Below are positions 10,842 through 63,920 of a stretch of 64,000 bases of DNA, one piece after another. Positions within the stretch are counted from its first letter, which is position 1. Each line of letters opens with the position of its first letter. Location: assembly GCA_022710715.1 (NCBI GenBank), contig JAKLGJ010000004.1, positions 192,166-256,165 on the forward strand. Reading direction: 5' to 3'. The stretch is from Candidatus Omnitrophota bacterium (GTDB lineage Bacteria; Omnitrophota; Gorgyraeia; Gygaellales; Profunditerraquicolaceae). A program made the translations under genes and the position numbers. The notes under the pieces are model-generated. The model did not search any database and was not told the origin of the DNA. It saw nothing but the letters and a program-made list of their open reading frames with translations.

Positions 10842-11120
10842 TTCGCAGGCGCTTTCCCCTGTTGAAATCGTTTTCAGAAGATTTCCTCCCGGGGCTTGAA
10901 AAACGCCGGATAGTCAGGTATATTCTTTACAAGAAGACAGGGATTTCTCTTTTAAGCTTCACAGACATGGGGTCTGTATAAAAAAGAGGATGCATCAACT
11001 GATGGGCAGAGTTGATGGATCGGTTCTTTTTAGACCGCAGTGTCAGTGAAGCATTTTTTTATCGCATGGGTAGGGGTACCCGCACACAAGGAGGATGCAT
11101 GAGCCAAAAGAGGTAATACA

Positions 11121-13970
11121 ATGCACAGCCACGGAGCCCGTAGGTCTTTCCCCGCTACTTTCTTTTCAGCATTCTCGCCGCTATTCTTAACTACTAGGTT
11201 GTTCTTCAGACAAGTACTTATTTTAAGCATGATTGTTGCGGTTATTTTTTCTCCGGCAGCGGGTTATTGTTTTGACTTTTCCGGAACGACCGCAACCCGA
11301 ACGCAGAACCGGCTGGCCACGAGCTTCACGCCGGTGCAGGCAACGACGGCAGCAGCGGCAGCAACGCGGCCGAACTGCGCGGCGAATGCGCTGTCCCATA
11401 TCCTCCAGGGAGTTTCTCCGGAGATGCTTCAGCAGGAGTTGAAGGGTTACACCGCCGGCCGTCAAACCACCATGCTGGGGATGCAGCAGGTAGCGATGAT
11501 CAACGGCACGGACATGCGCGGAGCGGCGTTCAGCTATGACGATCTGCGTCAGGCGCAAGGCGCGGTGATCGCGCATATGGATCTGGGAGAGGATCGAGGT
11601 CATTATGTGGATGTGCTCAAGGCAACCGCGTACGCGGTTACCTATATAGATAATCAGTCGGTGACCACCGTGTCGCGTGACGAATTCGAATCATTGTGGA
11701 CGGGAGCAGTCCTGACCGAGGATACGCAGCGGGGCAGGGATCTCACTGCGACGGAGATGCAGGAAATCAGCGGCGGTTGGGATATCGTGGGGGCGATCGG
11801 AGGTGCCGTCAGCGGCATCGCTTCCGCGGTCACCTCAACCGCCGGCGCAGTGGTCTCTGCGGTACAAACAGGTATCTCCGCCGCAGCTTCAACCGTACAT
11901 TCGATCGGCGCCGGTTTATCGAGTATGGCCAGTTCCGGCGCAGGCAATGCCGCGTCTAACACCTGCGGAAATACCGTCGGCGCCAGCCAGGGTAATACTT
12001 CTGGATCGCTCCCGGGTATCGGCGGCATTCTGACCAAAAGTACTGTCAGTCTGTCCAACAGTACCGGCGGGTCGAATTCTTCCGGTTCAGGCGTTCCCTT
12101 TGCGTATACCCCTTCTAACGGCTCGTTATTGAAAGACCTGATCAGCGCAACGACGGTTTCAGTGCAACCTGCAGCCGCCTCAAAGCAACCTGTTACCACT
12201 TCGGCTTCCGGGTCAGGCGCCTATGTTGATCAGCAGGGCCGAACCGTGCAGGTGACCACTGACGGTTTATCATATGAAGCCAGGGACAGCCGGGGCATGA
12301 TCGTGGCCAGCGGTTCCTGCGGCTCCTGGGGCAACGAGATCTACAGCCAGTCGTTGGAACCGATGGTAACTGCTCCTGCGGGTGTTTCCGGCGCGCCGGA
12401 AGCCGGCCAGCGCCCGGAAGTTCAGGCGCCGACGTCGGTGATCGATCTCGACCGGCAGGACGCGGCCAAGATCAACGCCAGCCAGCTCGCCGACGGACAG
12501 ATCGTTCGTCTGCCCGGCAATGCCCTATTGAAGGATCAATATTTCCAGTGGGATGCCGCCAAGAATGAATTTTATGAGGTTCCCCGTCCTGAAGGCGTCG
12601 AGCCGTCCAGGAACGTCAGCACCGCAGGAATCAATCTGCCTGAATTCAACGGATTGTCCGGGTTGTCGAAGAACAATCGGACAGAGACGGGCGTAAACAA
12701 TGTGATCACGCGCACTGAAGTAGTCAAAGTCAAAGAAACTGTTATTGACGGTGACGGCGGCGATTTGTATCAGGATCCCGACGGCAACATCGTGTCGGTT
12801 TCGCGCAACGGCAGCGCCTATGAAGTAAGGGATAGCCGCGGCAGTATCATTTCCAGCGGATCGGGCGGAAGCTGGAGGCAGGATCCCTATTCCGCGGCGC
12901 TGGTGCCGGTTCAGCGCACGAAGGCTGCATTGAGCAAAGAGATGCTCGACGAGAAGACAATGAATGAGAGCATGGCTGTCTGTTCCGCGGCCATGAGTAA
13001 GGGACAGCTTGAGCAGATGGCGCTGACCCGGGATGATTCTTCGGGTTTTCTGGAAAAGCTGTCAGAACTTTTTATGCCTTCGCCGCAGCAGGCGGTTTCC
13101 CGTCTTCTGGCTAAAGTTGAAGGCGCCGGCACCATTGATGCTAAAAAAGATGCCGCGACGGATATCACGCATCTCTACCGTTCAGCGGATGATCCAGGCG
13201 ATCAAGCCGTCATCAACAATGCGTTGCTCAATTCCGATGCCGGATTGATCAATGAGCGTAACCAGGCTATCTGGGAGAAGCACGGGGTGATCGTTCTGGA
13301 ATTCCAGCGGCAGTTGACGCCGGAAGAAGCCGCGACCATTGATTCCACGCTAAGCGCTTTACCGCAGGATAAAATGCCGGAAGTGATCTCTCTGGAAGCG
13401 GAATCCGCAATACAGGATCGCATTGGCGAATACCAGGCAGACAGCAGGGCTATCGTTATTTTCGCAAATGTCGCTCCCGGTGGAGCATACTGGACTGAAG
13501 ACCAGTACCGCCGCACGCTGGTTCATGAGATCGCGCATTACAATGATTTTGCCCGCAGGAGCGAGCCATTTTCCTTAAAACTTGACGGCGCAATTTCGTA
13601 TGCGTCTGACCCGAAGGTTTATAACTATGCCGAAGCATACGGCCAGAAAAACAAACTGGAAGATTATGCGACTATGCAGGAAGCCTACTTCGAGGATTCC
13701 GAATCCGTATTCTCTCGCGGTGTGGGAAATATGCTCGAGTATGAGGACGATACGTTTTTATCGAAAGTCAGCAATGTCGCTTCTTCGTACCAGCATACCC
13801 GGCAGCTTTCCGACGGTCAGACAGTGAAATGCACGTACACCTACGCTATTGACCCGGAAACCGGTGATGTGACCCGCAGCGAAGTCGCGTTGAAGGATAT
13901 GATCATAGAGGGCGAGTCGTTCCTGCTTCCGGATTTCGGCCAGACCTACGAAACCATCCGCCTTGTTTAG
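11121..13970 (+). CDS. Secreted multidomain protein: N-terminal C39-like (papain-fold) cysteine peptidase domain, Gly/Ser/Ala-rich linkers with internal repeats, C-terminal HEXXH zinc metallopeptidase domain
   Basis: Hydrophobic signal/anchor. NCAANALSH...GHYVDV matches the C39 Cys/His blocks. HEIAH lies at residues 802-806 with downstream Glu residues. AAGAGG RBS 7 nt upstream of the ATG. Confidence 0.6.
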   Translation: MHSHGARRSFPATFFSAFSPLFLTTRLFFRQVLILSMIVAVIFSPAAGYCFDFSGTTATRTQNRLATSFTPVQATTAAAAATRPNCAANALSHILQGVSPEMLQQELKGYTAGRQTTMLGMQQVAMINGTDMRGAAFSYDDLRQAQGAVIAHMDLGEDRGHYVDVLKATAYAVTYIDNQSVTTVSRDEFESLWTGAVLTEDTQRGRDLTATEMQEISGGWDIVGAIGGAVSGIASAVTSTAGAVVSAVQTGISAAASTVHSIGAGLSSMASSGAGNAASNTCGNTVGASQGNTSGSLPGIGGILTKSTVSLSNSTGGSNSSGSGVPFAYTPSNGSLLKDLISATTVSVQPAAASKQPVTTSASGSGAYVDQQGRTVQVTTDGLSYEARDSRGMIVASGSCGSWGNEIYSQSLEPMVTAPAGVSGAPEAGQRPEVQAPTSVIDLDRQDAAKINASQLADGQIVRLPGNALLKDQYFQWDAAKNEFYEVPRPEGVEPSRNVSTAGINLPEFNGLSGLSKNNRTETGVNNVITRTEVVKVKETVIDGDGGDLYQDPDGNIVSVSRNGSAYEVRDSRGSIISSGSGGSWRQDPYSAALVPVQRTKAALSKEMLDEKTMNESMAVCSAAMSKGQLEQMALTRDDSSGFLEKLSELFMPSPQQAVSRLLAKVEGAGTIDAKKDAATDITHLYRSADDPGDQAVINNALLNSDAGLINERNQAIWEKHGVIVLEFQRQLTPEEAATIDSTLSALPQDKMPEVISLEAESAIQDRIGEYQADSRAIVIFANVAPGGAYWTEDQYRRTLVHEIAHYNDFARRSEPFSLKLDGAISYASDPKVYNYAEAYGQKNKLEDYATMQEAYFEDSESVFSRGVGNMLEYEDDTFLSKVSNVASSYQHTRQLSDGQTVKCTYTYAIDPETGDVTRSEVALKDMIIEGESFLLPDFGQTYETIRLV

Positions 13971-14096
13971 CAGACGCTTTCCCTAAACCATGGCGGTCTA
14001 AAGGTTTGCGATAATATTATTCTTGCCTCGATAATTGTCGCGTTAATAATATTTTTGTAATTCGTTGCCAGCCATGAAGATGGGGAAAGCGTCTGC
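13970..14096. repeat. 127 bp TIR-flanked (MITE-like) element, copy A
   Basis: Left end GCAGACGCTTTCCC and right end GATGGGGAAAGCGTCTGC form an 18 bp terminal inverted repeat. Internal AATATTATTC and AATAATATTTTTGTAA blocks are shared with the copy at 62646-62772. The element begins at the G of the TAG stop codon. Confidence 0.6.
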
Positions 14097-14140
14097 GAAT
14101 TGTCTTGAGCCTGAAGGCAAAGCGTGTTACAATTCCCTCT

Positions 14141-14983
14141 ATGCTCGAGCGTATTGTTATTTTTATTTTCGGTTCGATCGTGGGCAGCTTTTTGAATGTC
14201 TGTATCCATCGCCTGCCGTTGAATGAATCCATCGTCTGGCCGGGTTCACATTGCCCCCAATGCAACAAACCCATTCCCTGGTATCTTAATATCCCGCTGG
14301 TCAGTTATCTGGCGTTGCTGGGTAAATGCCGTTACTGCAAGAAGCCCATTGCCTTCAGATATTTCCTGGTCGAACTGCTCACCGCGTTGACTTTCCTGGT
14401 ATTCTTCATGCGTTATGAACTGAAGTTCGAATTCTTTTTCTATAGCTTGTTTGTCTGCGGCTTGATCATTTCCACGTTCGTCGACATTCAACACCGCATT
14501 ATTCCCGACGAAATCTCGGTCGGCGGAATGATCGCGGGGTTTGCTCTGGTTGTCCTCAAAACCGCCTGGAGCGGTTTCCAGACAGCGGGCTTGCGTCCGG
14601 CGCAGTGGGGCTGGTTCCCGGCGTTTGATTCGTTGGCCGGCATCATTGTCGGCGGCGGGGTCATCTACGCCACGGGATTCCTGTTCGACCTGGTTTATTT
14701 CAAGCTGCTCAAGAAACCGCCGATACAGGGGGAGACCGAATCCATGGGCGGGGGAGACGTCAAGCTCCTGGCGATGATCGGAGCGTTCCTGGGCTGGCAG
14801 AATGCGCTGCTCACTTTTTTCCTGGCGCCGTTCTTCGGATTGATCGTCGGCGCAGCCAATATGCTGATCAAGAAAGATCACACTATCCCTTACGGGCCGT
14901 TCCTCTCGCTGGCGGCGGTGATCGTGCTTTTCTGGGGACCGATCATCATCCGACCGTTTATCTACCTGCCCTGTCCGTATTGA
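14141..14983 (+). CDS. pilD: Prepilin peptidase (type IV leader peptidase / N-methyltransferase, A24 family)
   Basis: N-terminal CxxC...CxxC zinc motif (HCPQCN...CRYCK), 6-8 TM helices and GGGDVKL catalytic Asp box. Confidence 0.85.
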   Translation: MLERIVIFIFGSIVGSFLNVCIHRLPLNESIVWPGSHCPQCNKPIPWYLNIPLVSYLALLGKCRYCKKPIAFRYFLVELLTALTFLVFFMRYELKFEFFFYSLFVCGLIISTFVDIQHRIIPDEISVGGMIAGFALVVLKTAWSGFQTAGLRPAQWGWFPAFDSLAGIIVGGGVIYATGFLFDLVYFKLLKKPPIQGETESMGGGDVKLLAMIGAFLGWQNALLTFFLAPFFGLIVGAANMLIKKDHTIPYGPFLSLAAVIVLFWGPIIIRPFIYLPCPY

Positions 14984-49661: not shown

Positions 49662-49684
49662 CCGGGGAACGTCCCCATAGAAGC

Positions 49685-49838
49685 GGATGATAGCTGCGCC
49701 TGTCCCTGCAGATGTGCTGCGCACATCTATGCGCAGGGACACGGCGCGAAACGGATCATAGCTGCGCCTGCCCCTGCAGATGTGCTGCGCACATCTATGC
49801 GCAGGGACACGGCGCGAAACGGATCATAGCTGCGCCTG
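49685..49838 (+). repeat. Tandem 68 bp direct repeat (2.26 copies) ending in the tRNA-Arg 5' end
   Basis: Units begin at 49685, 49753 and 49821 (period 68). Each carries GGAT(G/C)ATAGCTGCGCCTG, identical to the tRNA-Arg leader plus first 7 nt, then a 39 nt hairpin GTCCCTGCAGATGTGC-TGC-GCACATCT-ATGC-GCAGGGAC (49702-49740 and 49770-49808). The third unit continues into the real tRNA. Confidence 0.8.
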
Positions 49839-49905
49839 TAGCTCAATTGGATAGAGCGCCAGCCTTCGGAGCTGGGCGTTGCAGGTTCAAGTCCTGCCAG
49901 GCGCA
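49832..49905 (+). tRNA. tRNA-Arg (anticodon UCG)
   Basis: Cloverleaf: acceptor GCGCCTG/CAGGCGC, D stem GCTC/GAGC, anticodon stem CCAGC/GCTGG with loop CTTCGGA, T arm GCAGG-TTCAAGT-CCTGC. Confidence 0.8.
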
Positions 49906-49951
49906 TTGAGTTTGAGGAAGCCGGGAGCAGGGAAATTTTGTTGATTTGCTG

Positions 49952-50816: not shown

Positions 50817-53807
50817 ATGAGCGATCTTTGGCAGGGAACGTTGGAGAAAGTCGACGATTTTCGCTGGCGCATCCCGCCTTCCTATAAGCCCGGCATGCGC
50901 GTGCCGGGCCTTATTTATGCCGACGAGAAGCTCTTAAAAGACATTCTCCGCGACAAAGCCGCGGAGCAGGTCGCCAATGTGGCGTTCCTGCCGGGGATCA
51001 TCAACGCTTCTCTGGCCATGCCGGATATTCACTGGGGCTATGGTTTCCCCATCGGCGGCGTCGCAGCGACGGATATCGAGGCCGGAGGAGTGATCTCGCC
51101 CGGCGGCGTTGGGTTCGATATCAACTGCCTTACCGCTGAATCGCGCGTCTTGCATGCTTTCGGCTATTCTCTGCGTATTGCCGATCTTGAACAGACCTGG
51201 CGGACGAATCGGTTAGCGGTCATGGATTTCCGCCGGGGCAGAAAAGAGGATGCGGCGATCTGCGCGTATATCAAGATGGCGCCGCGAGAAAAGCTCTTTG
51301 AGATAACTACGGTAACGGGGAGGAAAATAAAAGCCACGGCAGATCATCCTTTCTGGACGCAGGACGGCATGGTGCCTCTGAAACGGCTTGCGGCAGGCAA
51401 TCGTGTAGCCCTGTACCCTTTTGAAGGTGTGCCTTTCGAGAAACCGGGCGGGGAGATCATTGTCGACGAAGAAGACGTAGTGCGGTTGCTTGCAGCGCTT
51501 AAAAAGGACTCGGGCGGCAATGCCGGTATCCAGGTTTTGAATCATCTGAAAAAAAGAGGCCTTTTACCGTTGCGCTACGATTCGCCGGCGTTGCCTTATT
51601 TGATCAAGATAGCGGGGTATTGTATCGGCGACGGTAATATCCATTTTGCTAAAAGCCGCGGCAAAGGAGTGACCGGATTCTGGGGGAAGAAAGAAGACCT
51701 GGAGCTCATTCGTAAAGATGTCGCGAAAACCGGGTTCACTTGCTCGCGGGTGTACCGGCGCAACCGCCGGCATGCAATCAACACCCCCTATGATTTGGTT
51801 CAATTCGAGCATCTGGAAGAGTCCTGCAAGGTCGTTTCCAGTTCTTTTTCCGTATTATTGATCTTATTGGGCTGTCCATATGGCAATAAGGCGGAGAAGC
51901 CGTTTTCTGTTCCGCGATGGCTATTCAAAGCTCCGCTTTGGCAGAAGAGATTGTTCCTGGCAGCTTACTTCGGGGCGGAAATGTCATCGCCGAAATCTTT
52001 TCGCGAGCAGGGATATAATCTCTATTGTCCCGTAGTTTCAATGAACAAGAACGGGCTTCTAGCCGACGATGCTATCGCGTTTTTCAAAGATATTTCCACC
52101 CTGTTGACCGAGTTCGGGGTCAGGACGGTCGCGATCAGCGAAAGTCACTCCGGATTTACCAGGAAAGGGACTTTCAACTATCGTATACGGTTGATCCTGG
52201 CCAGCAAAACCGAAGATCTGATAACACTGTACAGCAGGGTAGGATTTGAGTATAATCTTCACCGCAGTTTCCTGGCTAATGCCGCTATTCAGTTCTTGAA
52301 ATACAAACAGCGGATACTCCGGGAACGCGAGGAGAAAAGCGTTCAGGCACAGCGTTTGCATGCCCGGGGCTTCAGTCCCGCCCAGATTACCGAGAGTATC
52401 GGCTCGGAATTCGTGAATCGCCGGTTCATTGAAAGATCTGTTTATGAAGGCAGGAAAACGGGCCCACGCATAAGTTCCGCGGCGTTGAATTTCGTCAGCT
52501 TTATGGATGAGAATACCGCGGGATTAGAGATGTCCGGCATGCTCTGGGACGCGATCGAGACGATCGAAGAATCGGCGTCTCCGGAGTATGTATACGATTT
52601 TACTGTAGGGCATCGGGATCATAATTTTGTTGCCGACACTTTCGTGGTTTCTAACTGCGGGGTCAGGTTGTTGACCACCAACCTGCGCTACGATGACGTC
52701 AAAGACAGGATCAAAGATTTAACCTGCCGGCTCTTTAACGCTATTCCCACCGGCGTCGGATCGAAAGGCGATATCCGGATCAGCGAGAAGGAAGAGCGCA
52801 AGCTCCTGGTCGAAGGAGCGGGTTGGGCGGTCAAACAGGGTTTCGGGGTCCAGGAAGATCTGGAGTGCACTGAAGAATCCGGCGCGATCCAGGGCGCGGA
52901 TCCCGCGGCAGTTTCCGAACGCGCCTATGAGCGCGGCAAGGCCCAATCGGGCACGCTGGGTTCAGGCAACCATTTCCTGGAAGTGCAGGTGATCGACCAG
53001 TTGTATAACCGCGACGCCTGCGATGCCCTTAATCTTGACCAGGGACAGATCACCCTCATGATCCATTCCGGCTCGCGCGGTCTGGGGTATCAGATCTGCG
53101 ACGATTACGTCCGGTCGATGGTGCGTTGTCTGGACAAGTATAAGATCGAAGTGCCGGACCGCCAGCTGGCCTGCGCGCCGGTAACCTCGCCGGAAGGGAA
53201 AGCTTATCTGGCCGCGATGCGCTGCGCGGCCAACTATGCCTGGGCCAACCGGCAATGCCTGATGCATCTGGCGCGGTTGACGTTCCAGGAGTTCTTCGGG
53301 ACTCCCTGGCAGAAGATGCAGATGCGCCTGGTGTATGATGTGGCGCATAACATCGCCAAGATCGAAAAACACACGGTGAACGGGCAGCTCAAGAATGTCT
53401 GCGTGCATCGCAAAGGGGCGACCCGCGCGTTCGGCCCCGGGCATCCGGAACTGCCGCAGCGGTATCGTCAGATGGGCCAGCCGGTGATCATCCCCGGCGA
53501 TATGGGGCGCAATTCTTACTTATTGGTCGGCACGCAGCAAGCGATGGAAGAAACATTCGGCAGCACCTGCCACGGCGCGGGCCGGGTGATGTCGCGCAGC
53601 GCCGCGACCCGGTCCATCGACAGCCGGCAGTTGCTTAAAGATCTGGAATCGAAAGGTATTACGGTGATGGCTGCCGGCAGAGGCACGCTGGTGGAAGAGG
53701 CGCCGGAAGTTTACAAGAACGTCAATGACGTGGTTGATGTAGTGCACAAGGCCGGGCTGTCCACCCGGGTGTGCAGGATGAGACCCCTGGGAGTGATTAA
53801 AGGATAA
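50817..53807 (+). CDS. rtcB: RNA-splicing ligase RtcB interrupted by a large intein
   Basis: Exteins carry GFDIN|[14 protein letters not shown] and GSTCHGAGR RtcB motifs. 996 aa versus about 480 for canonical RtcB. Confidence 0.9.
51126..52655 (+). mobile_element. RtcB intein (510 aa) with LAGLIDADG homing-endonuclease domain
   Basis: Starts with Cys (CLTAESRVL) and block B TADHPF. LAGLIDADG-like [14 protein letters not shown] and [10 protein letters not shown]. Block [16 protein letters not shown] and block G TFVVSN followed by +1 Cys. The penultimate residue is Ser rather than His. Confidence 0.85.
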
Positions 53808-59711: not shown

Positions 59712-59776
59712 GAGCGTAAAAGACTTTTCTTCACTCGGGCATACGCAGTCGGCCCGGATGAAAGAAAATACGCAGA

Positions 59777-59816
59777 TAGCCCTGATCGGGTAACCCGATC
59801 AGGGCTATTCTGTTTT
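59777..59816 (+). terminator. Rho-independent terminator
   Basis: 14 bp stem TAGCCCTGATCGGG/CCCGATCAGGGCTA with loop TAA, followed by TTCTGTTTT. Confidence 0.7.
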
Positions 59817-59899: not shown

Positions 59900-61705
59900 A
59901 TGCGTGTTTTGATAAGGAGCAGAGAACCGGTGTCGCAAACACAACTTGACGTCAAATTGCTGGAAGTCACCGATAACGCCCTGGCGATCATTTACGCCGC
60001 CTGCCGGCAGTGCTATTCCGATAAATTTGCCGGCGATATCTTTGACGACGGCAGCGCCGATCCCGGCAAAGCCGGGGAGTTCATCCGTAAAGTGGTCGCT
60101 TCCGGCCATGAAAGCCCGCTCGAGCATGCTAAATTCACCTTTGCTATCCAGGGCGTGTCGCGGGCGCTGACCCATCAGCTGGTGCGTCACCGGATCGCTT
60201 CTTTCTGTTTAACGGGAGATACGATAATCAAGGGAGCACGGAATGACAGTGCTCGGTCGTATAAAAAGTATACCTTGAAATCGTTGTATGAGAGAATGCT
60301 GACCCCGCACGGCAGGTCTCGTTTAAAACTGATCAGGTTGAATGCTTACGATGAGCAGGGGAAGGTATTTGATCGGGGGAAGATCAAAACAATTCTGTAC
60401 ACCGGCAGGCAAATGGTATGGCGGGTGAAGTTGACTAACGGCCAGAGCATAAAAGCCACGATTAATCATCGGTTTTTAACGCGAGATGGCTGGTTGCCTT
60501 TGGAAGATATTATACGCGTCAGACCTCAACTGGGCGTTAACGGTATTGCTTGCCGGCATCCGAGTTTTGCTGTGCTTAGAAACAGGCAATGGCTGGAGGA
60601 GCAATATAGTCTCAAGAATCTGAAGCAAGAAACTATTGCGAAGCTGATTGGATGCTCCGGTCATACGGTGAGAAGCTGGGTATTCAAGCATGGTTTACAG
60701 AAAGAAATCGGCGGTTTGCATGGGCATCCTCCCAATCGTGGATATCATTGGAAGCTTAATCGCAATCGCACCCTTGAGGAGAAAAAGGCGATTTCCGAGA
60801 GGATGAAAGGCCCGCGCAATCCTATGTGGAAGGGGGGAGTTACGCGGTTGGACGTTACCTTGCGCAAAATGGTATCTCCCGAAGTCCGTAAGGACATTTA
60901 TAGGCGAGATGGTTTTCAATGTCGCCTGTGCAAGCAGGTTGGAGGCCGTTTGACGCTGCATCATCGGGTGCCGCTCTATGTCAATCCGGTCGACCCGGCG
61001 GATACAGATAATTTAGTGACTCTTTGCAGGAAATGCCATTTTAAAGTGAACAATCATGAAATGGAATATATGAATATTTTCGGAATTGACCCTATACCCT
61101 ATCATGCCAGGTCAAGCGGTTGTTTTCGAGTCATAAAATGGGTAGAGATAGCCAGTATTGAGTGTGCAGGGATCGAAGACACGTACGATATAGAGATGCA
61201 GGCTCCGCACCATAATTTTGTAGCCAACGGTTTTGTCGTTCATAATTCACAGCAGTCGCAACGCTATGTCAAGGAGTCCCAGTTCGATTACATCATCCCG
61301 CCTTCCATCGAGAAGGATCCGCGCAAGAAAGAGGTTTTTCTCCAGACCATGAAGGAGATACAGGAACAGTACAATAAACTGCTCGCGTTGTACAAAGAAG
61401 GCGGACAGCAGGGGGAAGTCGCCAACCAGGACGCGCGTTTTGTCCTGCCGCAGGCCGCCGAGACCAAAATCGTGGTAAGCATGAACTGCCGGGAATTGCT
61501 GCATTTTTTCAAGCACCGCTGCTGCGTGCGGGCCCAGTGGGAGATCCGGGCTTTAGCCGGCCGCATGCTGGCCATGGCCAGGGAGAAACTGCCCGAAATC
61601 TTCGGCGCCGCCGGCGCGAAGTGCGAATCGCTTGGGTATTGTCCGGAAGGGGAGAAATTCAGCTGCGGTAAATATCCCTCCAAAGATAAAGTCCTGAAAG
61701 TGTAA
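59900..61705 (+). CDS. thyX: Flavin-dependent thymidylate synthase ThyX interrupted by an intein
   Basis: The ThyX signature RHRIASF|SQQSQRY is split by the insert. Remaining exteins total about 254 aa. Confidence 0.88.
   Translation: MRVLIRSREPVSQTQLDVKLLEVTDNALAIIYAACRQCYSDKFAGDIFDDGSADPGKAGEFIRKVVASGHESPLEHAKFTFAIQGVSRALTHQLVRHRIASFCLTGDTIIKGARNDSARSYKKYTLKSLYERMLTPHGRSRLKLIRLNAYDEQGKVFDRGKIKTILYTGRQMVWRVKLTNGQSIKATINHRFLTRDGWLPLEDIIRVRPQLGVNGIACRHPSFAVLRNRQWLEEQYSLKNLKQETIAKLIGCSGHTVRSWVFKHGLQKEIGGLHGHPPNRGYHWKLNRNRTLEEKKAISERMKGPRNPMWKGGVTRLDVTLRKMVSPEVRKDIYRRDGFQCRLCKQVGGRLTLHHRVPLYVNPVDPADTDNLVTLCRKCHFKVNNHEMEYMNIFGIDPIPYHARSSGCFRVIKWVEIASIECAGIEDTYDIEMQAPHHNFVANGFVVHNSQQSQRYVKESQFDYIIPPSIEKDPRKKEVFLQTMKEIQEQYNKLLALYKEGGQQGEVANQDARFVLPQAAETKIVVSMNCRELLHFFKHRCCVRAQWEIRALAGRMLAMAREKLPEIFGAAGAKCESLGYCPEGEKFSCGKYPSKDKVLKV
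60206..61246 (+). mobile_element. ThyX intein (347 aa) with HNH homing-endonuclease domain
   Basis: Starts with Cys (CLTGDTII), block B-like KATINHRF, an HNH module (CRLC...HHRVP...N...CRKCH), block F YDIEMQAPHHNFVA and block G GFVVHN followed by +1 Ser. Confidence 0.85.
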
Positions 61706-61731: not shown

Positions 61732-62646
61732 ATGAAAGAACTCTACTACAAATTTTCCGACTATTTCCGAAAACAGGGATTTAAAGGGCGGGTGCATAAA
61801 GTAACGGTCGATGCGGGATTTTCCTGTCCCAACCGCGACGGCACGCGTTCCCGCGGAGGCTGTATCTATTGCAGCAATGAAGGATTCAGCGTGCACACCC
61901 GCGCGCCCGGTCTGGCCATCGAGCAGCAGATCGCCCAGGGCATGCAAGCTTTGAGAAAACGGTTCAAGGCGGAAAAGTTCATCGTTTACTTCCAGGCTTA
62001 TTCCAATACTTACGCTTCCGTGGATCAACTTAAGCGGGCGTATGATACCATAAAACAATTCCCCGATGTCGCGGGGCTGGCGATTGCCACCCGGCCCGAC
62101 TGTATCGACGAGCAGATCCTCGCGTTGATCGATTCCTATACCGCCAAATACGATGTCTGGATTGAATATGGGCTGCAGAGTATCCACAACCGCACGCTGG
62201 TATACATTAACCGCGGCCATTTATACGAGGATTTTCTCGATGCCGTGTATAAGACCCGGAAATTCAAGCGCATCAAAATATGCGCGCATGCGATCGTTGG
62301 CCTGCCGTTCGAAACGGAGGCGATGATTCTGGATACCGCCCGGGCAATCGGACAGCTCAAGCTGGACGGTGTCAAGATCCATCCGTTGCATGTGATCAAA
62401 GGAACGGCCCTGGAGACATTGTATCGCCGGGGAGAGTTCAAGCCGATGACGCGCGATGAATATGTCGACCTGGCGGCGAAGTTCCTGGAATACCTCTGGC
62501 CGCAAACAGTGATCCAGCGATTGACCGCGGATTGCCCGCCGGATCTGCTGGTTGCGCCGTTGTGGCTGCTGGAAAAGCAGCGCGTCCTGTCTGAAATCGA
62601 ACGCCACCTCGCGGCGCAACATACTTTTCAAGGCCGCCGCTTTTAG
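61732..62646 (+). CDS. TIGR01212-family radical SAM protein
   Basis: CPNRDGTRSRGGCIYC cluster motif and overall YhcC/TIGR01212-like sequence. Confidence 0.7.
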   Translation: MKELYYKFSDYFRKQGFKGRVHKVTVDAGFSCPNRDGTRSRGGCIYCSNEGFSVHTRAPGLAIEQQIAQGMQALRKRFKAEKFIVYFQAYSNTYASVDQLKRAYDTIKQFPDVAGLAIATRPDCIDEQILALIDSYTAKYDVWIEYGLQSIHNRTLVYINRGHLYEDFLDAVYKTRKFKRIKICAHAIVGLPFETEAMILDTARAIGQLKLDGVKIHPLHVIKGTALETLYRRGEFKPMTRDEYVDLAAKFLEYLWPQTVIQRLTADCPPDLLVAPLWLLEKQRVLSEIERHLAAQHTFQGRRF

Positions 62647-62772
62647 CAGACGCTTTCCCCATCTTTATGTGTAGCATGTAGTTACAACAATATTATTCCT
62701 GATCATTGAATTGGTTCATAAATAATATTTTTGTAAGTCGATGATCCGTCTGCGGATGGGGAAAGCGTCTGC
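62646..62772. repeat. 127 bp TIR-flanked (MITE-like) element, copy B
   Basis: Perfect 18 bp TIRs GCAGACGCTTTCCCCATC at 62646-62663 and GATGGGGAAAGCGTCTGC at 62755-62772. Begins at the G of the TAG stop. Shares internal motifs with the copy at 13970-14096. Confidence 0.65.
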
Positions 62773-62801
62773 GGTTGATTAGGAAGGGGAGATGTGATAT
62801 A

Positions 62802-63920
62802 ATGGCTACTACTATGGATATGACCCCGCAACGAGAAACTCCGCTCATCGCTGAACATCGCACATTGCAGGCAAAGCTGGCGCCGTTCGGCGGCTGGCTG
62901 ATGCCGATCCAATACGAAGGCATTCTGGCAGAACATCACTGGACGCGCAATAATGTCTGCGTGTTCGATATCTGCCACATGGGCGAGTTCCAGGTCCAGG
63001 GCGATCTGGCTTCCAGCAATCTCGACCACGTGGTAACCATCAACCTCACCGGCATGGCAACCGGGCAGTGCCGTTACGGCTTTATGCTCAATCAGGCCGG
63101 CGGGGTCATTGACGATCTGGTCGTGTACCGGCTCGGGGAAAAGGAATGGATGCTGGTCGTCAATGCCGCGACCGAGGAGAACGACGAACATCACCTTCTG
63201 CGCAATCTTTCCCGCGACATCACTTTCAAGAATATCTCCGGCCAGACCGGAAAACTCGACGTGCAGGGACCGCTGTCCGGTGTCATTCTCAAGGATCTCG
63301 TCGGCGCGGATGTCGCAAAATTAGCGTACTATACGTTCGCTAAATTCAAACTGCTCGGCGAAGACGTGATCGTCAGCCGTACCGGTTATACCGGCGAACT
63401 GGGATACGAAATTTATATTTCCAGCGCGAAAGTGGTTGAATTATGGCGGCTTCTGCTTAAGAACAGCCGGGTTAAACCCGCCGGCCTGGGCGCGCGCGAT
63501 ACGCTGCGTCTGGAAATGGGCTATCCGCTCTACGGTCAGGATCTGGATACCCAGACTACCCCGGTAGAAGCGGGGCTTTCCGGCTTTGTAGATTTCTCCA
63601 AGGATTTCATCGGGAAATTATCCCTGGTGGCCCAGAAAGACGGGGGGCCGAGTCGGCGCTTGCGCTGTTTCCAGAGCGATTCACGCCGCGCGCCCCGGCA
63701 TAATTACAAAATTTACCTTAAGGACAAGGAGATCGGCGCAGTTACCAGCGGTTCATTCTCTCCCACTCTTGGCTGCGGCATTGCCATGGGGTATGTCAGC
63801 TGCGAGCTCAAAACCGGCGAGCAGGTTAATCTTAAGGAAAATCAGATCGATATCCCCGCGCGGGTCGTGACCCGGCCATTTTACAAGCAGGGGACAGCCA
63901 AGTCGGAGGAAATCAGATGA
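62802..63920 (+). CDS. gcvT: Glycine cleavage system T protein (aminomethyltransferase)
   Basis: GcvT N-terminus ([25 protein letters not shown]). ATG at 62802; the ORF-track start at 62775 is TTG inside the repeat element. Confidence 0.88.

Follow-up and report, generated by a model that had tools for sequence, protein, structure and literature searches.

Two copies of a 127-nt palindromic element, 48.7 kb apart, each begin inside the TAG stop codon of one gene and end shortly before the start of the next in the genome of a Candidatus Omnitrophota bacterium (assembly GCA_022710715.1). Both lie in a 64,000-nt stretch of contig JAKLGJ010000004.1 (positions 192,166 to 256,165), hereafter called the window. 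An earlier reading of the letters alone, made without database searches (the sequence-only reading), had proposed a MITE (miniature inverted-repeat transposable element) or other small mobile element. On balance, we favor a related conclusion and consider it somewhat probable that the copies represent a small non-autonomous element with terminal inverted repeats at its edges, MITE-like and mobile in origin. The element is MITE-like rather than a demonstrated MITE, because target-site duplication is lacking, only two copies were seen, and neither a partner insertion sequence nor empty sites were found. It looks like a known kind of element and not a new type of system, its exact placement in two TAG stop codons being the only unusual feature.

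Two copies of equal length with 18-nt terminal inverted repeats, perfect in copy B and partly eroded at the left end of copy A, had been described before, and these claims proved exact in every coordinate (Table 1). The 18-mer GCAGACGCTTTCCCCATC is present without mismatch at 14079-14096 (minus strand), 62646-62663 (plus strand), and 62755-62772 (minus strand), and with three mismatches at 13970-13987. When up to three mismatches were allowed, the window contained four matches as compared to 0.08 expected by chance, and none of 100 shuffled sequences reached that number. The internal blocks said to be shared by the copies, AATATTATTC and AATAATATTTTTGTAA, are also present in both, the latter with identity at 16 of 16 positions. 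We found, in addition, that the two blocks are reverse complements of each other, the whole element being one long imperfect palindrome. The arms of copy B are 57 nt each, 75% complementary, and separated by 13 nt. Every arm consists of a GC-rich terminal repeat of 18-20 nt, approximately 18 variable nt, and a 16-nt AT-rich inner repeat (TTRCRAnAATATTATT), and 23 nt form the centre between two arms defined in this way. The spacing of the blocks is the same in both copies, and all four arms have the same length.

Table 1. Coordinates of the element copies, their parts, and adjoining features in the window.
Feature	Coordinates	Strand	Remarks
Copy A	13970-14096	+	Long imperfect palindrome between a C39-peptidase-like gene and pilD; covariance model 133 bits
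Copy B	62646-62772	+	Long imperfect palindrome, 3' of the TIGR01212 radical SAM gene and 5' of gcvT; covariance model 149 bits
Copy A, left terminal repeat	13970-13987	+	First 14 nt intact; positions 15-18 eroded, TAAA replacing CATC
Copy A, right terminal repeat	14077-14096	-	20 nt, perfect complement of the left end of copy B
Copy B, left terminal repeat	62646-62663	+	Perfect
Copy B, right terminal repeat	62755-62772	-	Perfect
Copy A, inner-stem left arm TTGCGATAATATTATT	14006-14021	+	Pairs with the right arm via two G-U pairs on the plus strand
Copy A, inner-stem right arm AATAATATTTTTGTAA	14045-14060	+	16/16 identity with copy B
Copy B, inner-stem left arm TTACAACAATATTATT	62682-62697	+	
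Copy B, inner-stem right arm AATAATATTTTTGTAA	62721-62736	+	
TAG stop, Peptidase_C39-domain protein (949 amino acids; 913 as called)	13968-13970	+	G is base 1 of copy A
TAG stop, TIGR01212 radical SAM gene	62644-62646	+	G is base 1 of copy B
Sigma-70-like promoter TTGAGC-17-TACAAT, upstream TG	14105-14133	+	Consensus match only; outside the element, starts 8 nt after copy A
Sigma-70-like promoter TTGATT-17-TATAAT, upstream TG	62775-62803	+	Consensus match only; outside the element, starts 2 nt after copy B, 5' of gcvT
Possible solo terminal-repeat relic GCAGGCGCTTTCCCC	10845-10859	+	14/15 match, weak; 3 nt after the TAA stop of a DUF2207 gene

Copies A and B are identical at 82 of 127 positions (65%), and copy A matches the reverse complement of copy B at 84 of 127. 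Because identity is about equal in either direction, the relative orientation of the copies cannot be told. Outside the repeats the copies are only about 55% identical, yet the 16-nt core and three of the four terminal repeats show no mismatch, which fits selection on the parts needed in cis. As judged from this pattern, the repeats and core may have been maintained in place, or the copies may derive from already diverged sources that were obliged to keep them. The similarity ends exactly at the repeat tips, and alignments of the flanks were nonsignificant as compared to shuffled sequences (right, p=0.11; left, p=0.93). The right-flank value also led us to reject the promoter downstream of each copy as a part of the element. 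Likewise, we rejected an element-encoded peptide, as both copies contain only unconserved open reading frames (ORFs) of 3-10 codons. Thus, a discrete non-coding segment with inverted-repeat edges lies in two unrelated contexts at one and the same site, and these are the hallmarks of a site-preferring small non-autonomous element.

The insertion site could be defined to the nucleotide. The upstream ORFs (11121-13970 and 61732-62646) both close with TAG, and its final G opens each element, as the sequence-only reading had pointed out. It had also placed the starts of gcvT and of pilD, which encodes a prepilin peptidase, at a short distance, which we measured as 44 nt from the end of copy A to the ATG of pilD (14141) and as 29 or 41 nt from the end of copy B to the two called starts of gcvT (62802 and 62814). 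The radical SAM protein terminates where its homologues terminate, and thus the TAG is its native stop and the element neither truncates nor extends the protein. With a slash for the inserted copy, the flanks read TTTA/GAAT for copy A and TTTA/GGTT for copy B. The shared site is therefore TTTA/G followed by A or G, in agreement with the strongly preferred insertion context claimed earlier. Because a G follows each element, excision of exactly 127 nt would restore TTTAG and the stop codon. TAG accounts for 11 of the 62 stops in a crude gene set, and each pre-insertion spacer offers about 40 possible positions. By this post hoc arithmetic (about 1/40 x 0.18), two insertions inside TAG are unlikely to have occurred by chance. 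At their other end the copies stop just short of a predicted promoter, so that each fills the slot between the upstream stop codon and the promoter of the next gene.

From these features we infer the following course of events. A transposase supplied in trans would have recognized the terminal repeats and placed the copies between A and G of TTTAG, a motif that coincides with a stop codon at two operon boundaries. Insertions at the many out-of-frame TTTAG sites within genes would have been lost. Both events would be old, given the 65% mutual identity of the copies and their fixation in every assembly, including a lineage that is 96.7% identical, and the family is probably inactive or low-copy in this genome. 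Once in place, each copy would most likely be cotranscribed as the 3' end of the upstream mRNA and fold into a 127-nt hairpin of -55 to -59 kcal/mol. Possible roles of such a hairpin are protection of the 3' end, weak termination, and insulation.

Bacterial MITEs, as described in PMC3184786, are small, end in inverted repeats, fold stably, and lie at the 3' ends of genes, with which they are cotranscribed. Of the features in their definition, we found terminal inverted repeats, small size without a transposase gene, and a stable predicted secondary structure. The closest parallels are MITEs of the ERIC, Correia, and Nezha type, which measure approximately 100-170 bp, with ERIC, like the element here, at about 127 bp (PMC3184786). 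Like it, they consist of a non-coding core between terminal inverted repeats, are predicted to form a very stable hairpin, and occupy intergenic positions at gene 3' ends, where MITEs are cotranscribed and can alter mRNA stability. In contrast to these families, the element shows no TA or other target-site duplication, was seen in two copies without partner insertion sequence or empty sites, and is inserted exactly inside a TAG stop codon. It also differs from ERIC in that its right flank lacks TA and blastn found no match to it in 5,426 Escherichia coli genomes, which carry ERIC.

Several results weigh against a mobile origin. The window lies on the 1.62-Mb contig Ga0116241_10000002 from JGI metagenome 3300010429. 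We assembled 106,996 nt of contiguous source genome (positions 195,363-302,358 of that contig), including a 43-kb extension, and only the two copies were seen in it. No third copy was detected there with the terminal repeat at up to 4 of 18 mismatches, with the inner core at up to 3 mismatches, or with a covariance model built from copy A, copy B, and copy B of the divergent lineage. The absence of a transposase from the window, noted by the sequence-only reading, extended to the surrounding 107 kb, as no transposase Pfam domain was found among the scanned ORFs of at least 100 amino acids; the genes of the window are housekeeping throughout. Target-site duplication is absent at both sites, with at most an ambiguous G or GC that is possibly the repeat's own. 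Thus, from the MITE definition (PMC3184786), flanking direct repeats are missing, as is a contrast of filled and empty sites among close relatives. No empty site occurred in any assembly fetched, including, for copy B, the 96.7%-identical lineage. Scans of the GTDB, JGI, and IMG/VR collections, which missed contigs known to carry copy B, revealed no insertion sequence or other relative with a matching terminal repeat, and no fetched locus held paired repeats of such an insertion sequence within 3 kb. Last, both copies and all four arms are of equal length despite saturated divergence of their variable parts, which is more typical of a constrained functional structure. The idea of a mobile element stands on the discrete repeat-bounded segment, its sharp edges, its stable fold, and the insertion context common to both copies, while duplication, further copies, and empty sites did not come to light.

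The scans with the exact terminal repeat returned 35 matches in GTDB representative genomes, 34 in JGI metagenome contigs, and 1 in IMG/VR, all of them singletons in unrelated taxa. By our own arithmetic, about 17 exact matches are expected by chance in 596 Gb. None of the singletons has a partner repeat within 3 kb (up to 4 mismatches) or fits the covariance model. Because the scans missed the contigs Ga0116241_10000002 and Ga0209310_1002688, both known to carry copy B, they are uninformative on copy number in the source genome. Judging by these exact matches, no other sequenced lineage in the scanned collections shares the terminal repeat. A gapped scan of IMG/VR with the paired-repeat pattern gave 0 matches, and the inner-palindrome pattern matched one AT-rich tandem repeat there, which we judged unrelated. 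Furthermore, no related sequence was found in plasmids or phages. Among relatives, the nearest other radical SAM homologues reach only 64% identity (69% in a partial match), and their gene is not followed by gcvT; at such low identity and without conserved synteny, an orthologous empty-site comparison is impossible there.

Two shorter matches within the window were considered and rejected as further copies. The possible relic at 10845 matches over only 15 nt, has neither a partner repeat nor an inner core nearby, and the score of a wider alignment falls within the null distribution of the window. The other lies in the ribosome-binding region of ilvD, AAGAGGGAAAGCGTATGC (1029-1046, including the start codon), where 13 of 14 core positions match the terminal repeat. 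This 14-mer with one mismatch (1033-1046) overlaps the ribosome-binding site and the ATG, and probably reflects chance or a shared Shine-Dalgarno-like motif.

Some support for the MITE-like reading comes from a related Omnitrophota genome, whose radical SAM protein is 63% identical. There, the 590-nt spacer after the TIGR01212 orthologue contains several unrelated palindromes with inverted repeats at their edges, of which two are nested. At one locus (L080, 8426-9016) the arms measure 30, 24, and 35 nt, while another (L081, 8362-8931) has a different 34-nt pair that is 94% complementary. Compensatory changes distinguish one inner hairpin between the two assemblies, and the genes after the spacer are not the same in both. 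Thus, elements of this general kind occur in a relative too.

The lack of target-site duplication raises the question of a different mode of transposition, in which a single-stranded DNA hairpin is mobilized by an HUH/tyrosine transposase and inserted 3' of TTTA or TTTAG without duplication, as a palindrome-associated element of the IS200/IS605 type or a REPIN/RAYT-like element. Palindrome-associated elements derived from IS200/IS605 insert 3' of a short conserved target without duplication and depend on DNA hairpins; their two ends carry similar subterminal hairpins in the same orientation, and terminal inverted repeats are lacking. The conserved flank of the copies is likewise one-sided (TTTA, or TTTAG including base 1), and their precise removal would regenerate the target. 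With DNA parameters, moreover, both strands fold about equally well into a hairpin spanning the whole element (-24 to -31 kcal/mol, z -5.4 to -10). REPINs consist of two inverted REPs and a spacer forming a long hairpin (PMC3337134); they are also intergenic and cause no target-site duplication, all of which resembles the element. However, its ends are true inverted repeats of 18-20 nt; GCAGACGCTTTCCCCATC is without internal complementarity and pairs only with the opposite end, so that it forms no local hairpin and resembles neither the subterminal hairpins of IS200/IS605 nor a palindromic REP unit. The conserved AT-rich inner palindrome is a further difference from REPINs. No Y1 transposase or RAYT domain was found among the called genes of the 107 kb. 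REPINs usually number tens to hundreds of copies, as compared to the two seen here. Moreover, given that both sites are TAG stops, the additional shared TT has a chance of 1 in 16 (n=2). We therefore regard mobilization by such a transposase as unlikely.

We also compared the copies across assemblies. Copy A is identical in all assemblies fetched for it. For copy B, the upstream gene led to five loci from JGI, Logan, and NCBI assemblies, and its sequence is the same in all of them. The divergent lineage, GCA_025490955.1, has copy B at the same site, with 96.7% identity over 2.2 kb; the comparison covers copy B, as the only contig for the site of copy A in that lineage begins at pilD. At fourfold-degenerate sites of the flanking genes 8.3% of positions have changed, and in copy B 9 of 127. 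The terminal repeats remained untouched (0/38, P about 0.04 as compared to the fourfold sites), as did the promoter-bearing spacer (0/41), including the predicted promoter on the gcvT side, while the interior changed at an approximately neutral rate (9/89). Five of the nine changes lie in the inner stem and none of them breaks pairing. Three are A-U/G-U exchanges; the other two lie on opposite sides and turned a C-U mismatch into a U-A pair (in another tally, one change makes the new U-A pair and the other is a further one-sided change). Two inner-stem changes also recreate the TTGCGA of copy A; besides selection on structure, gene conversion with another member of the family as donor is therefore an alternative.

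We evaluated the predicted fold of the RNA. The plus strand reaches -57.2 kcal/mol in copy A (z -9.0), -55.2 kcal/mol in copy B (z -8.5), and -59.3 kcal/mol in copy B of the divergent lineage, whereas the corresponding minus strands reach -43.6, -47.9, and -42.4 kcal/mol. Over the three sequences, the plus-strand z values range from -8.5 to -9.4, and the plus strand is 7-17 kcal/mol more stable than the minus strand in each of them, because of G-U pairs in the inner stem.

The pairing-preserving substitutions and the advantage of the plus-strand RNA, set against about equal folding of the two DNA strands, point to another explanation. In this one, the copies are a cis-acting structural module of the host, currently immobile and possibly exapted, in the form of a long RNA hairpin or a protein-bound DNA palindrome at operon boundaries. 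The base of the stem would be melted by a ribosome terminating at the UAG, and the module would terminate or insulate transcription or stabilize the 3' end of the upstream mRNA. We consider this possible, although clearly doubtful. It would fit that all five inner-stem substitutions keep or create pairing, that the terminal stem is unchanged, and that an identical block spacing is found in two copies set in functionally equivalent positions, each reaching from a stop codon almost to a -35 box. Yet the three sequences provide no double-sided case of covariation (the shuffle control was uninformative and the formal test without power), the interior evolves near the rate of fourfold sites, and the variable segments are unpaired in copy B. 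The sequence-only reading had already offered a structured intergenic RNA or regulatory cassette as its alternative, which gains some support from the substitutions and the strand difference. It gains nothing from Rfam, where only tRNAs reached the gathering score and the best permissive matches were plant and animal microRNA and long interspersed element (LINE) models far below threshold. Furthermore, the two flanking gene pairs share no function, and a sharp, repeat-bounded 127-nt segment at two distant sites still requires an insertion mechanism.

Termination of transcription would be one role of such a module. As with intrinsic terminators and terminator-like repeats such as SPRITE of Streptococcus pneumoniae (PMC3184786), a GC-rich stem directly follows the stop codon of the upstream gene at an operon boundary, and some U residues come after the stem. 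In contrast to these, the hairpin spans 127 nt with large internal loops, and by its sequence the U-tract appears marginal in both copies. In copy A the sequence past the stem, GAATTGTCTT, has 5 T among the 8 nt that begin 2 nt beyond it, which speaks for the host module, whereas copy B (GGTTGATT), with 4 of 8, falls short of a U-tract and speaks against it. The terminator scan was limited to loops of 3-8 nt, and thus neither hairpin could be scored.

A stricter version of the host module couples the element to translation: the hairpin must start in the UAG so that the terminating ribosome opens a basal stem of 14-19 bp. If true, it would link the completion of upstream translation to 3' end formation or stability, or to the promoter 2-8 nt beyond the element. 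It would also explain why the copies sit flush with a TAG, why their geometry is fixed at 127 nt, why the terminal stems are intact, and why the G-U pairing is specific to the plus strand. We hold this version to be quite improbable, and only if the stop-codon coupling proved functional would the element represent a new mechanism.

The strong structure beginning inside the UAG of both copies could also be taken as a recoding signal that promotes read-through or pyrrolysine-type decoding. However, the radical SAM protein has its end at the same position as its homologues, and read-through would append unrelated tails, 20 and 31 residues long. TAG serves as an ordinary stop here, closing 11 of 62 ORFs, and no Pyl machinery was seen in the 107 kb. 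Thus, recoding is extremely unlikely. An integron attC site was rejected as well, as the ends carry no GTTRRRY/RYYYAAC cores.

If the copies do represent a family of MITE-like elements, it may be the first on record for Omnitrophota; our full-text literature search found none in this group. Omnitrophota are known almost only from metagenomes. The copies would further illustrate that elements of this kind can settle within a stop codon, leaving the protein unchanged and the next gene with its promoter. In practical terms, they are of relevance for annotation, as spurious minus-strand ORFs run through the element, and for the reading of operon boundaries in these genomes.

The predicted promoters downstream of the two copies show a feature of their own. 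Their -10 boxes end 7 nt before the ATG of pilD (in the region 14128-14143) and 10 nt or fewer before the ATG of gcvT (in the region 62798-62816), and no Shine-Dalgarno sequence lies between the predicted -10 box and the ATG of pilD. This arrangement suggests that the mRNAs of pilD and gcvT are leaderless or near-leaderless.

Other repeats were found in and near the window. A 13-mer forming a small hairpin, GGGGACGTTCCCC, is present in exact copies on opposite strands at 968-980 and 49664-49676, as compared to about 0.002 exact matches expected by our own arithmetic. Both copies lie 2 nt after a stop codon (stops ending at 965 and 49661). Judged by sequence and position, it may represent either another small repeat or a motif of a terminator. 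A tandem array of 2.4 copies of a 68-nt unit, 95% identical, occupies 49680-49839, each unit holding its own palindrome, CCCTGCAGATGTGCTGCGCACATCTATGCGCAGGG; the array runs into the 5' end of tRNA-Arg(TCG) at 49831-49906. Another tandem array occupies the metK/ahcY intergene approximately 4.3 kb upstream of the window start (locus L077, 2643-2968, and in another assembly L078). Its 43-nt unit, CGGGGGCTACACTTGCGCATATTCCGATTGCGCAAGGTGTAAA, occurs five times in the JGI contig and four times in the NCBI metagenome-assembled genome GCA_035390565.1, followed by a longer terminal variant, and each unit contains a hairpin and the promoter-like TTGCGC-17-TACACT. In addition, a perfect 16-bp palindrome, ATAGCCCTGATCGGGT/ACCCGATCAGGGCTAT, lies at 59776-59808 in the 188-nt spacer upstream of thyX.

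Genes of mobile type are also present in this region. RtcB and ThyX carry inteins (50817-53807 and 59900-61705) that are only weakly similar to each other, the ThyX intein carrying an HNH endonuclease. Just past the end of the window is a gene for a free-standing LAGLIDADG endonuclease (locus L089, 10464-11252). Approximately 11-18 kb beyond that end (L089, 13163-20281), a 1.9-kb stretch without a called gene precedes a cluster of phage or mobile-element type, which encodes an SNF2 helicase, a Prim-Pol/D5_N primase, Pam3_Gp34, DUF7307, and several family-less ORFs.

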